This document shows positions 3,221-3,917 of a DNA stretch of 10,696 nt, piece after piece. Under the pieces are notes generated by a model. That model saw only the letters and a program-made list of their open reading frames with translations, searched no databases and was not told where the DNA came from. This stretch comes from a virus (taxonomy: Duplodnaviria > Heunggongvirae > Uroviricota > Caudoviricetes): positions 1-10,696 of the IMG/VR virus record IMGVR_UViG_2534681978_000009; one strand, given 5' to 3'. The position numbers were made by a program, and so were the translations under genes. Each line of letters opens with the position of its first letter. The first letter of the stretch is position 1.

Positions 3221-3406
3221 TTATTTTTTATGCCTGTAACCCCATTCTTCCAGCAACCTTGCGGCGTACCACCCAAGAAACAAAGGAAAGAACATTACAA
3301 TGAGATATGCCACGCCACGGTCAATGTTCGAAATTGACCAGATTACGATGTAACCAGTGCAGGACAGGAATATTACAAACCCCAAAAAGCTACTTCGTCG
3401 ACTCAT
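3221..3406 (-). CDS. Hypothetical small membrane protein (two predicted TM helices)
   Basis: 61 aa from the ATG at 3406 (MSRRSSFLGFVIFLSCTGYIVIWSISNIDRGVAYLIVMFFPLFLGWYAARLL...), with AAGGAG 5 nt upstream. Two hydrophobic stretches. No recognisable family. Confidence 0.5.
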   Translation of the reverse strand: MSRRSSFLGFVIFLSCTGYIVIWSISNIDRGVAYLIVMFFPLFLGWYAARLLEEWGYRHKK

Positions 3407-3408
3407 GC

Positions 3409-3693
3409 TCACTCCTTCACTTTGATTCCAGCGGCGCGGATGGATTCATCGATATCGTCACGGTCGTACACAGCAATAGCATCACTGACAAACCATACAG
3501 GCAACTCAATTTCAATAGCTGCTCGCGATGCCTGCCACGTTTGCCAGTGGCCTTGAACATCGTCCATCACGTATTGACCACCAATATCACCACTGCCAAT
3601 TTCATGGTGATTTTCAGGGTAACGGATAAGGTCTGATGATTCGCCTCCACGTCGCAACCAACTTTCTTCAAACTGCTTTCTTGATTCGTCCAT
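3409..3693 (-). CDS. Hypothetical acidic protein (ren/ninA slot)
   Basis: 94 aa, MDESRKQFEESWLRRGGESSDLIRYPENHHEIGSGDIGGQYVMDDVQGHWQTW.... ATG with GAGG upstream; stop 2 nt before the next ORF. Function unknown. Confidence 0.55.
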   Translation of the reverse strand: MDESRKQFEESWLRRGGESSDLIRYPENHHEIGSGDIGGQYVMDDVQGHWQTWQASRAAIEIELPVWFVSDAIAVYDRDDIDESIRAAGIKVKE

Positions 3694-3710
3694 CGATACT
3701 TACCCTCAGT

Positions 3711-3917
3711 TCAACTCACAAAACGCCACGCCATTTTTGCTACGACAACAGGCATAACACCGATAATCACCCAGACAAATGCAGCGCCAAACAACGTATA
3801 CCATGGGTCTTTACCGTCATTCACAAGACGAATGTAGCTATGCAGAACAATAAAAAACGTCAGAAGAATCCATCCAACGCCAACGCATTTGAATGCGACG
3901 AGCATAAACTCAGCCAC
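3711..3917 (-). CDS. Hypothetical small membrane protein (two predicted TM helices)
   Basis: 68 aa, MAEFMLVAFKCVGVGWILLTFFIVLHSY...AAFVWVIIGVMPVVVAKMAWRFVS. GTG start at 3917 with GGGGGAGAG Shine-Dalgarno upstream; an alternative ATG lies at 3905. Confidence 0.5.
   Translation of the reverse strand: MAEFMLVAFKCVGVGWILLTFFIVLHSYIRLVNDGKDPWYTLFGAAFVWVIIGVMPVVVAKMAWRFVS

Follow-up and report, generated by a model that had tools for sequence, protein, structure and literature searches.

Shuffled small genes between tR2 and ninB of a lambda-like E. coli prophage include a conserved membrane-protein gene without annotation in the RefSeq records listed

The DNA analysed here (10,696 nucleotides, hereafter the window) has a one-strand gene context that comprises cI, cro, cII, O, a DnaB helicase, NinB, NinE, NinF, Roi, YbcO, an ORF at the RusA position and Q, and an N-like antiterminator gene was also found (phrog_271, E 3.4e-36). 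On the minus strand of this lambda-like E. coli prophage, a variable accessory stretch extends from the helicase gene and tR2 to ninB. The stretch is the tR2-ninB accessory slot of the early-right (pR) operon, in which NinA, ORF1, ORF2 and ORF3 follow closely upon one another; these four small genes are listed below with their flanks.

3990..5366, minus strand: DnaB-type replicative helicase gene, upstream flank (Pfam DnaB_C, E 9.5e-78, plus DnaB N-terminal domain)
3910..3993, minus strand (read from 3993 to 3910): NinA mini-ORF, 27 aa (phrog_5907, E 1.3e-18)
3931..3964, minus strand: tR2-type intrinsic terminator (hairpin 3964-3941 plus T-run), inside the NinA frame (terminator scan)
3711..3917, minus strand (read from 3917 to 3711): ORF1, 68 aa, GTG start (phrog_1165, E 1.6e-38)
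3409..3693, minus strand (read from 3693 to 3409): ORF2, 94 aa, ATG start, acidic and soluble (phrog_343, E 1.2e-27)
3221..3406, minus strand (read from 3406 to 3221): ORF3, 61 aa, ATG start, orphan membrane mini-protein (dN/dS, intact copies)
2799..3209, minus strand: ninB, GTG start, downstream flank (Pfam NinB, E 1.1e-55)

A preliminary description of the window had reported three ORFs of 68, 94 and 61 aa after a tR2-like terminator downstream of the helicase gene, each with its own SD and the last two separated by 2 nt, and this layout was confirmed in its coordinates and lengths, on the minus strand. The SDs are GGGGGAGAG (6 nt upstream of the ORF1 GTG), GAGGG (9 nt upstream of the ORF2 ATG) and AAGGAG (5 nt upstream of the ORF3 ATG), the last of which lies within the final codons of ORF2, encoding its conserved KVKE* end. 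ORF1 and ORF2 are spaced by 17 nt, the 2-nt gap falls between the ORF2 TGA (3411-3409) and the ORF3 ATG at 3406, and ORF3 fills the ORF2-ninB gap exactly, with 11 nt from its stop to the ninB GTG and a ninB SD (AGGAG) that overlaps the ORF3 stop region. At the other end of the slot, the NinA ATG overlaps the stop of the helicase gene (ATGA), and the NinA stop codon (TGA) falls in the start region of ORF1, around its GTG. The helicase itself is named ‘replicative DNA helicase’ by PGAP in the 100%-identical prophage of E. coli NCCP15648.

The NinA of P22 and HK620 is recognized by its 27 aa, an ATG over the helicase stop and tR2 inside the frame, all of which are found in the ORF at 3993-3910 and in none of ORF1-3. 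The hairpin that this frame contains has 8 bp, 6 of them GC, followed by TTTTATTT (MFE -16.8 kcal/mol), and the homologous stretch is labelled tR2 in the HK620 and Sf6 records. It was the sole convincing terminator in our scan and lies upstream of ORF1-3, with no internal terminator. The 27-aa ORF is annotated as ninA in HK620, HK630 and SPN9CC and as gene 45 in Sf6, and its product is 100% identical beside very different ORF1 alleles; the Sf6 record also labels the NinA stretch ‘boundary sequence bsq6’. The placement of the trio in a ren/ninA slot, made in the preliminary description, thus holds for the variable accessory slot but not for the gene, as ‘ninA’ in P22-type phages is the overlooked 27-aa ORF. 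An assignment of ORF1 as NinA was likewise rejected: where tblastn rows carry a NinA label, it refers to the 27-aa ORF that overlaps ORF1. Across the window no Rfam family reached its gathering score, and the only match at E <= 1 in 3100-4100, Trp_leader on NinA/tR2, was attributed to chance, with 18 bits where the gathering score is 41 (E 0.78).

ORF1 aligns to PHROG 1165 over its full length, its residues 1-68 covering all 68 positions of the profile. Its relatives form 43 protein clusters, of which every named one comes from Escherichia or Salmonella, and homologues occur in 107 phage records; PHROG 1165 is restricted to Escherichia/Salmonella lambdoid phages. All 16 homologues that we aligned are 68 aa long, with an invariant GKD turn and AKMAW-F C-terminal tail and with R65 in 15 of the 16, while dN/dS between alleles is about 0.3. 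Two membrane-competent segments (about 5-25 and 40-60) are seen in the hydropathy profile, the AlphaFold2 model is a hairpin of two helices (H2-33, H38-67, mean pLDDT 88.6), and DeepTMHMM helices are noted for the homologue in the Kapi1 record. A Foldseek search of the hairpin against viral structures returned only non-significant generic hairpins (best E 0.95). PGAP names the protein ‘hypothetical protein’, and it is unannotated in the HK620 and H-19B records.

ORF2 is acidic (pI 4.6, 20 D+E versus 10 K+R), without a membrane-competent segment in its hydropathy profile, and belongs to the Phage_phiTE_015 family (PF26207, PHROG 343). The PF26207 assignment was drawn from precomputed matches of the 99%-identical P0001 and of nearly all of the 120 homologues listed, and PGAP gives the name ‘phiTE_015 family protein’ to an identical protein in RefSeq (WP_000344553.1). 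It shares with the family the blocks MDESRKQFE, W..WQASRAAIEIELP and IRAAGIKVKE, and counts Sf6 gp48, 933W L0091 and HK022 gp59 among its relatives. Members of the family vary in their middle segments, and some carry N-terminal extensions; the family is strongly mosaic, and ORF2 represents one of its alleles, with no difference in kind. Its AF2 model is mostly helical (pLDDT 66), a search of the ORF2 profile against PDB sequences gave nothing at E <= 1, and for the family as a whole we found neither a solved structure nor a fold match.

ORF3 encodes a protein with two hydrophobic segments (about 7-25 and 32-48), the second of which is short and marginal at about +0.9 to +1.8 kcal/mol on the Hessa scale, and with basic termini (N-terminal MSRRSS and a C-terminal RHKK tail). 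These profiles, together with the AlphaFold2 hairpin of ORF1 and the pI of ORF2, agree as predictions with two double-TM mini-proteins and one acidic soluble protein, as had been described. ORF1 and ORF3 are unrelated proteins with two hydrophobic helices each, homology between them being rejected at a BLASTP E of 3.6. A variant 74% identical to ORF3 differs from it by a dS of about 1.0 and a dN of about 0.18 (dN/dS about 0.17), is of equal length, and has the five other frames closed, as does ORF3. The hydrophobic pattern is conserved, and the gene was intact, with neither stop nor frameshift, in all 69 full-length copies collected. It is carried by 195 of 5426 complete E. coli genomes (about 3.6%), including EHEC O26:H11 prophages, and the E. 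coli copies are all at least 93% identical. Diversifying selection on the loop, where residues 32-33 read GV-A, GG-E or GG-K, was considered and found unsupported, since the 13 non-synonymous and 5 synonymous polymorphic sites put pN/pS at roughly 0.7, close to neutrality.

Family searches, which the preliminary description had proposed, ended differently for the three genes: PHROG 1165 for ORF1, PHROG 343/PF26207 for ORF2 and none for ORF3 in Pfam, PHROG, NCBIfam or PADLOC. ORF3 is without any annotated feature among the 30 RefSeq rows listed (PGAP), is annotated in two phage records only, and is found in only 4 clusters among 5.8 billion proteins. Its profile HMM returned nothing from 1.84 billion representatives, ORF3 itself included, so the library evidently lacks ORF3 and the search is uninformative beyond the statement that there is no distant family. 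Translation signals and conservation, on which the preliminary description had made its reading depend, are nonetheless both present, in the SDs and in the dN/dS of about 0.3 for ORF1 and about 0.17 for ORF3, and all slot ORFs are real coding sequences under purifying selection. That description would also have taken an identification as common conserved nin-region hypotheticals as a refutation, and this description fits ORF1 and ORF2, for neither of which the searched literature reports a phenotype, whereas ORF3 is rare and unannotated. A literature search on phiTE_015, PF26207, the PHROG numbers, DUF7301 and nin-region membrane proteins yielded no functional study; a paper on the svsR sRNA that came up concerns the 3′ end of cI, not the tR2-ninB slot.

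The distribution of the three genes shows that they are not a fixed module and points to independent members of a shuffled nin-region pool. Among 80 ORF1-bearing IMG/VR loci, ORF1 stands alone before ninB in 11 (as it does in HK620, HK630 and Kapi1), is joined by a phiTE_015 gene without ORF3 in 46, and is accompanied by both other genes in 23, so that the trio does not hold as a unit across lambdoid prophages. From the side of ORF3, ORF1 is present in 40 of 61 loci and clearly absent in 20, which carry ORF2 and ORF3 without it. Matches to the full 851-bp arrangement came from 90 E. coli genomes (of 5426) and 2 phage records (of 50,697), and matches to parts of it from 2054 genomes. In the O26:H11 prophage, remnants of both neighbours still flank the ORF3 cassette (17 nt from the 3′ end of ORF2, 11 nt from the start of ninB), and ORF3 has therefore relocated as a single-gene unit. 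The one constant is that ORF3 adjoins, or lies one gene from, a phiTE_015-family gene in 60/60 complete IMG/VR contexts and 4/4 phage records, and this adjacency could reflect functional coupling instead of independence. We also observed a second unannotated ORF, here called TM60 (60 aa, two TM), always immediately upstream of a phiTE_015 gene. Taken together, this is an ordinary variable phage slot, in which nothing is new except ORF3, unannotated among the RefSeq records listed.

The slot had further been described as a moron slot. Morons have their own promoter and usually their own terminator, and a simple consensus scan, which is a weak test and would miss weak or non-sigma-70 promoters, found no sigma-70-like promoter on either strand of 2700-4500, where shuffled sequences gave an expectation of 2.0. 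With no promoter-like site, the slot genes are therefore probably not morons expressed from the prophage, and since they also lie behind tR2 they are expected to be silent in the repressed prophage, although some prophage expression may occur despite the empty scan. The operon layout suggests that transcription would occur only after infection or induction, once N-modified RNA polymerase passes tR2. Translation would then be chained through the overlaps of helicase stop with NinA start and of NinA stop with ORF1 start, and through the ORF3 SD in the end of ORF2.

We consider it likely, on the whole of the evidence, that the slot genes are shuffled members of the nin pool that act as separate, N-dependent accessory proteins of the lytic phase. 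The hydrophobic segments of ORF1 and ORF3 have Hessa-scale sums near 0 kcal/mol, and both hairpins may, tentatively, span the inner membrane so that N- and C-terminus alike face the cytoplasm, a topology read from charge distribution only, with basic residues at both termini. By analogy, each might act on its own on a membrane target during lytic growth, and the likeliest role for such a hairpin would perhaps be to stop the DNA entry of a superinfecting phage or to neutralise a membrane-based host response, as in the case of T4 Imm. ORF2 might bind a cytoplasmic partner from the host or phage. All of the slot genes would be expected to be dispensable in the laboratory, as are other nin genes.

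The adjacency data invite a different reading, namely that ORF2 and ORF3 form a two-gene unit, as would the phiTE_015 paralogue with TM60, in which a membrane hairpin serves the soluble protein as anchor, regulator or antagonist. In its favour, the 60/60 and 4/4 adjacency persists though the adjacent alleles span 38 to 100% identity, TM60 keeps a fixed place directly before a phiTE_015 gene, and the ORF3 SD is embedded in the KVKE* end of ORF2. However, a phiTE_015 gene already sits in 69 of 80 ORF1-type slots, so the adjacency is expected from the background rate; the E. coli ORF3 copies, being at least 93% identical, are not independent observations; and recombination within ORF2 preserves an ORF2-type gene by construction. 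The O26 remnant flanks point to historical linkage, the 74% variant of ORF3 has a helicase gene immediately before it and, in place of a phiTE_015 gene, a 37-aa ORF and a NinA-like ORF after it, and most phiTE_015 genes, including non-lambdoid ones, have neither ORF3, TM60 nor another two-TM neighbour (as in Skate-like, Klebsiella, Hafnia and Pseudomonas jumbo phages). We thus regard a two-gene unit as unlikely. An extension of it, which we consider quite unlikely, would make the tR2-ninB slot a hotspot for tiny inner-membrane proteins (NinA, ORF1, ORF3, TM60) in which ORF3 and TM60 are obligate phiTE_015 partners, forming an undescribed two-component exclusion or counter-defence system of the lytic phase that annotation pipelines have missed.

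The preliminary description raised the possibility of an exclusion or toxin-like module. In its fullest form this would be a superinfection-exclusion or toxin/antitoxin-like unit, with membrane toxins around an acidic antidote, that acts as a moron in lysogens, and an acidic protein between two small hydrophobic ones does suggest this, as do the match of the slot to the position of lambda ren (annotated in H-19B and mEpX1) and the existence of small phage membrane proteins, T4 Imm, P22 SieA and HK97 gp15, that are exclusion factors. The independent assortment of the three genes speaks against it, repression in lysogens is implied because the slot lies behind tR2 in the pR operon, and neither a promoter-like site nor an internal terminator was found. 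Nor did ORF1-3 match any PADLOC defence family at E <= 1 or any toxin, holin or Imm family in Pfam or NCBIfam, and the hallmarks of a type I toxin-antitoxin system (an antisense or toxin-associated RNA in Rfam, an opposite-strand promoter, a toxin family in Pfam or NCBIfam) were not found, which renders the module very unlikely; sub-threshold matches in the Pfam, NCBIfam and PADLOC scans (T4SS_pilin, SET_TTL, an antiporter subunit, dGTPase) were set aside as noise. An influence of ORF1 and/or ORF3 on the timing of lysis, as holin- or antiholin-like proteins, is equally improbable. In their length (61-68 aa), their two transmembrane helices and the basic tail at their C-terminus they do recall class II holins, of which S21 is an example. 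Their genes, however, are part of the early operon and not of the lysis cassette, with Q more than 2 kb further downstream; a lambda-family holin is already encoded after Q in the matching prophage; and neither family searches nor Foldseek on ORF1 (best E 0.95) pointed to a holin. Finally, the ORF3 frame might have arisen by chance in the spacer that precedes ninB. This would account for PGAP not calling it, and its lack of a feature in the 30 RefSeq rows listed, of a family, of more than four protein clusters and of an entry in the 1.84-billion library is compatible with this. The strong AAGGAG SD, the excess of dS over dN at equal length with the other frames closed, the 69/69 intact copies with their conserved hydrophobic pattern, and the exact fit between ORF2 and ninB make a chance frame extremely improbable.

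As matters stand, the slot counts as ordinary phage ‘dark matter’: its arrangement is one among the many reshufflings of the nin pool, and two of the three genes fall in catalogued families. What it adds is ORF3, a conserved membrane-protein gene under purifying selection that is featureless among the RefSeq records listed, with TM60 and the 27-aa NinA missed in the same way. Three or four of the smallest slot genes encode predicted membrane peptides whose expression is probably confined to the lytic phase, and would thus offer a compact, easily deletable test bed for microproteins. If one of the slot proteins proved to be an exclusion or anti-defence factor, this would be of consequence for the biology of Stx phages and for the annotation of small proteins.

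Among known systems, class II holins (S21 of phage 21) are proteins of about 60-70 aa with two transmembrane helices and a charged C-terminal tail, and ORF1 and ORF3 share their predicted topology but neither their lysis-cassette location nor a family match. With T4 Imm, P22 SieA and HK97 gp15 they have in common that they are phage-encoded, predicted inner-membrane proteins, with no sequence or family similarity detected. Imm is small and made early in lytic infection, whereas SieA and gp15 are expressed from the prophage, unlike ORF1 and ORF3, which lie behind tR2 without a promoter-like site. Lambda ren occupies the slot between the replication genes and ninB, and Ren is not known to be a membrane protein; ORF2 is similar to it in size but belongs to PHROG 343, not to a Ren-annotated family, and H-19B and mEpX1 carry an annotated ren plus an ORF1 homologue. 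The slot can also be compared with the lambdoid nin set (ninA-ninZ of P22, HK620 and Sf6), which it resembles in its position between the replication genes/tR2 and Q, its tight packing, its overlapping stop and start signals and its mosaic presence and absence, and whose genes are dispensable and mostly obscure in function. None of ORF1-3 is a named nin gene, though the window also carries NinA, NinB, NinE and NinF. According to published descriptions (PMC5630979, PMC8022706), nin-region genes are closely packed, are not essential and come from a pool of 30-50 genes, and the region is, in the words of Kroger and Hobom (1982) as cited in PMC8022706, a ‘chain of interlinked genes’.

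The window comes from a lambdoid (P22/HK620-like) prophage of E. coli and covers its immunity and early region; three small ORFs occupy the slot between its tR2 terminator and ninB. The 851 bp spanning this trio match an E. coli NCCP15648 prophage at 100% identity and phage vB_EcoP-611R6 at 99.2%.

Features of the window
8444-8749, plus strand: N-like antiterminator (phrog_271, E 3.4e-36)
7275-7925, plus strand: cI
7194-7009, minus strand: cro, rightward operon
6987-6607, minus strand: cII, rightward operon
6310-5363, minus strand: O-type initiator, rightward operon
5366-3990, minus strand: DnaB-type helicase, rightward operon
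3993-3910, minus strand: NinA ORF, 27 aa (phrog_5907, E 1.3e-18)
3917-3711, minus strand: ORF1, 68 aa, GTG at 3917, SD GGGGGAGAG
3693-3409, minus strand: ORF2, 94 aa, ATG at 3693, SD GAGGG, pI 4.6
3406-3221, minus strand: ORF3, 61 aa, ATG at 3406, SD AAGGAG, start 2 nt past the ORF2 stop
3209-2799, minus strand: NinB, GTG at 3209, 11 nt past the ORF3 stop
between NinB and Q, minus strand: NinE, NinF, Roi/antirepressor, YbcO and an ORF in the RusA position, rightward operon
1000-467, minus strand: Q, rightward operon

The Roi/antirepressor gene (1737-2460, minus strand), a single uninterrupted frame in HK620, is split here by a frameshift into a Rha-domain part (2460-2131) and a KilAC part (2315-1737) in separate frames, and is either a pseudogene or a sequencing error. 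On the pL side lie three ORFs without known function: a 129-aa ORF (8043-8432, minus strand) that lies opposite in strand to cI and N, in the interval separating them, which makes it a candidate for a moron position, and whose sole family match is a C-terminal hit of 20 residues to phrog_6589 (function unknown); a 149-aa ORF with hydrophobic segments directly after N (8758-9207, plus strand; phrog_3054); and, after it, a Glu/Ala/Lys/Arg-rich, coiled-coil-looking 340-aa ORF (9342-10364, plus strand; phrog_1376).

The preliminary description had placed the trio correctly, in coordinates, lengths, spacing and SD calls as read on the minus strand, and its portrayal of two double-TM mini-proteins and an acidic soluble protein was borne out: hydropathy and Hessa-scale sums gave two membrane-competent segments each in ORF1 and ORF3 (the second of ORF3 short and marginal) and none in ORF2. 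The tR2-like terminator that it saw after the helicase gene is likewise there, as an 8-bp GC-rich hairpin with a T-run (3964-3931, minus strand) whose counterpart in the HK620 and Sf6 records bears the label tR2. What it overlooked is the 27-aa ORF that starts in the ATGA closing the helicase gene, crosses the terminator hairpin in frame and ends in a TGA overlapping the GTGGCTGA start region of ORF1. Since 'NinA' in P22, HK620, HK630 and Sf6 denotes this ORF, ORF1 was rejected as NinA. The NinA/tR2 stretch is 100% identical beside ORF1 alleles of only ~53% identity, and the Sf6 record labels it a mosaic 'boundary sequence'. The diverged forms of NinA found in HK022 (34 aa) and Gally are still hydrophobic and share its first 9-11 residues, a hint that NinA may be a real one-TM peptide and not a terminator by-product; one could speculate that ribosomes on it affect termination at tR2.

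ORF1 belongs to PHROG 1165 (E 1.6e-38) and has no Pfam model. We found it in 107 phage records, among them HK620, HK022, HK630, H-19B, Stx2 phages and P22-like Salmonella phages, with no annotation in the HK620 and H-19B records; its 43 protein clusters come, wherever a source is named, from Escherichia or Salmonella. The two main alleles (~53% identity) and a Salmonella form (72%) all have exactly 68 codons, with dN/dS of 0.2-0.4 at dS of at least 1, and the GTG start is supported by the ATG that the Salmonella form has at codon 1. An AlphaFold2 model from a 16-sequence alignment is a confidently predicted helical hairpin (H2-33, turn D-G-K-D, H38-67; pLDDT 88.6), and the Kapi1 record gives DeepTMHMM helices for the homologue.

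ORF2 falls in PHROG 343/Pfam PF26207 ('Phage_phiTE_015'), the family after which RefSeq names an identical protein, and has 311 homologues at E <= 0.001. Members of this strongly mosaic family are found as far afield as Skate-like Salmonella phages, phages of Klebsiella and Hafnia, and Pseudomonas jumbo phages; the blocks MDESRKQFE, W..WQASRAAIEIELP and IRAAGIKVKE are conserved, the stretches between them vary and N-terminal extensions are optional. ORF2 has no sequence relative among solved structures, and its AlphaFold2 model reaches only a moderate pLDDT of 66 and gave no meaningful match in fold comparison. In the family alignment (A1; loci L011, 1720-2136, and L004, 1637-2143) the middle segments are swapped between conserved end and centre blocks; the phiv205-1 protein carries an extra N-terminal CxxC...CDC zinc-ribbon-like segment, the SPN9CC protein a 70-aa N-terminal extension, and Hafnia phage Meifeng two paralogues in tandem. 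In the O26:H11 prophage (L015) a paralogue spans 875-1243 (minus strand), of which PGAP annotates 875-1120 only; since its ORF reaches upstream to the family-typical MDESRKQFE start, the RefSeq protein probably lacks the true N-terminus.

ORF3 is unrelated to ORF1 and has no counterpart among the families of Pfam, PHROGs, NCBIfam and PADLOC; a profile search of 1.84 billion representative proteins, among which ORF3 itself is evidently not represented, gave no distant relative. It forms four protein clusters in all, one of them at 74% identity and of the same length (dS ~1.0, dN ~0.18, dN/dS ~0.17), and the other five frames of both forms contain stops. All 69 full-length copies are free of stops and frameshifts, and the view that ORF3 is not a gene was rejected on this selection analysis (dN/dS ~0.17, 69/69 copies intact); to judge from its sequence, it is a real gene. 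It is present in 195 of 5426 complete E. coli genomes, including O26:H11 str. 11368, and no PGAP feature covers it in the 30 carrier records listed. The preliminary description had said that identification as common conserved nin-region hypotheticals would speak against its reading, and this is essentially the case for ORF1 and ORF2, already catalogued families without known function in a well-known variable slot; what is new is ORF3, a genuine orphan membrane microprotein unannotated in every RefSeq record listed, although of a familiar kind. Near-identical copies vary at codons 32-33, in the predicted inter-helix loop, with GV-A (the window), GG-E (commonest) or GG-K, and have S or F at position 15; positive selection is not clear, the 13 non-synonymous against 5 synonymous polymorphic sites being near neutral. 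The sole diverged relative, on a metagenome contig (L008, 2267-2587), directly follows a helicase gene and precedes an overlapping 37-aa basic ORF and a NinA-like ORF (MTAYLTECIVGL...), so that ORF3 and the NinA/tR2 position have changed sides there. The available sequence, cut short by the end of the contig, shows no phiTE_015 gene.

The trio had been suggested as a possible exclusion or toxin-like module or moron. We surveyed slot contents by tblastn in IMG/VR loci (61 for ORF3, 80 of 263 for ORF1). Among the ORF1 loci, 23 carried all three genes, 46 had ORF1 and a phiTE_015 gene without ORF3, and 11 had ninB directly after ORF1; among the ORF3 loci, ORF1 was present as either allele in 40 and clearly absent from 20, the last being truncated upstream. 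ORF1-less orders included DUF7301 > ORF3 > TM60 > phiTE_015 > ninB and TM60 > phiTE_015 > ORF3 > ninB, where TM60 is a 60-aa ORF. The 851-bp arrangement (>=80% query coverage) occurs in 90/5426 E. coli genomes and two phage records, and parts of it in 2054 genomes. In the O26:H11 prophage the ORF3 cassette (L015 ~1430-1730, minus strand, compared with window 3195-3440) still has 17 nt from the 3' end of ORF2 on its upstream side (AAAGTGAAGGAGTGAGC) and 11 nt from the start of ninB on its downstream side (GTGAAGCAAAC), from which clear footprint at the gene boundaries we infer that ORF3 was relocated by itself, as one gene, from an ORF2 > ORF3 > ninB context. No two-TM ORF lies next to the phiTE_015 genes of Skate, VLCpiS13d, PA5oct, Meifeng or Sf6. 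These patterns together argue against an obligate three-gene module, and the exclusion, toxin or moron reading is weakened by this independent assortment, by the lack of promoter-like sites in a consensus scan of both strands of window 2700-4500, and by the lack of any PADLOC, Rfam or toxin family match.

The main rival is a two-gene partnership of ORF3 with phiTE_015 proteins, for a phiTE_015-family gene is present in each complete ORF3 context, mostly immediately upstream and with adjacent alleles 38 to 100% identical, and TM60 always lies directly upstream of one. We read these associations as linkage and not function, and consider a partnership unlikely, because phiTE_015 genes occupy 69/80 ORF1-type slots anyway; because the E. 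coli ORF3 copies are all at least 93% identical and therefore not independent observations; because recombination inside ORF2 preserves an ORF2-type gene by construction; and because the 74% relative sits between a helicase gene and the 37-aa and NinA-like ORFs, with no phiTE_015 gene in the available sequence. TM60 (MVNAFICSLFLVAIFHGFLLMMSFVLWNNGYRILGVGFVLRFSVVCALLPIIMATIKYYW) is unannotated, has two hydrophobic segments and no PHROG or Pfam match, and occurs in the O26:H11 11368 prophage (L015, 1259-1441, minus strand) and in ~20 IMG/VR loci (e.g., L038, L057, L027); the reading of the slot as a membrane-microprotein hotspot, in which phiTE_015 proteins would partner some members, seems improbable. 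A holin/antiholin role for ORF1 and ORF3 would fit their size and topology, but not their gene location; no family match supports it, and the matching prophage already has a lambda-family holin downstream of Q.

We favor slot genes that act independently. Gene order, terminator, N-like gene, chained stop/start signals and the absence of promoter-like sites are observed; on this basis cI repression would keep the slot silent, and its genes would be transcribed from pR only once N-modified polymerase passes tR2, making them delayed-early genes. Translation would run in two chains, helicase-NinA-ORF1 and ORF2-ORF3. The ORF1 and ORF3 hairpins would insert into the inner membrane, and basic residues at both ends (MSRRSS... 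and ...RHKK in ORF3; K10 and K61/R65 in ORF1) suggest that both termini are cytoplasmic. Published work portrays the nin genes as a closely interlinked, non-essential selection out of a pool of 30-50 genes (PMC5630979, PMC8022706). That the slot genes are independent, N-dependent, non-essential nin-slot accessory genes is, in our assessment, likely. A more tentative and rather doubtful proposal is that ORF1 and ORF3, each alone, would exclude superinfecting DNA or neutralise a membrane-based host response during the lytic phase, with ORF2 binding a cytoplasmic partner. The analogy behind this proposed membrane role is with T4 Imm, which is small, sits in the membrane and is produced early in lytic infection.
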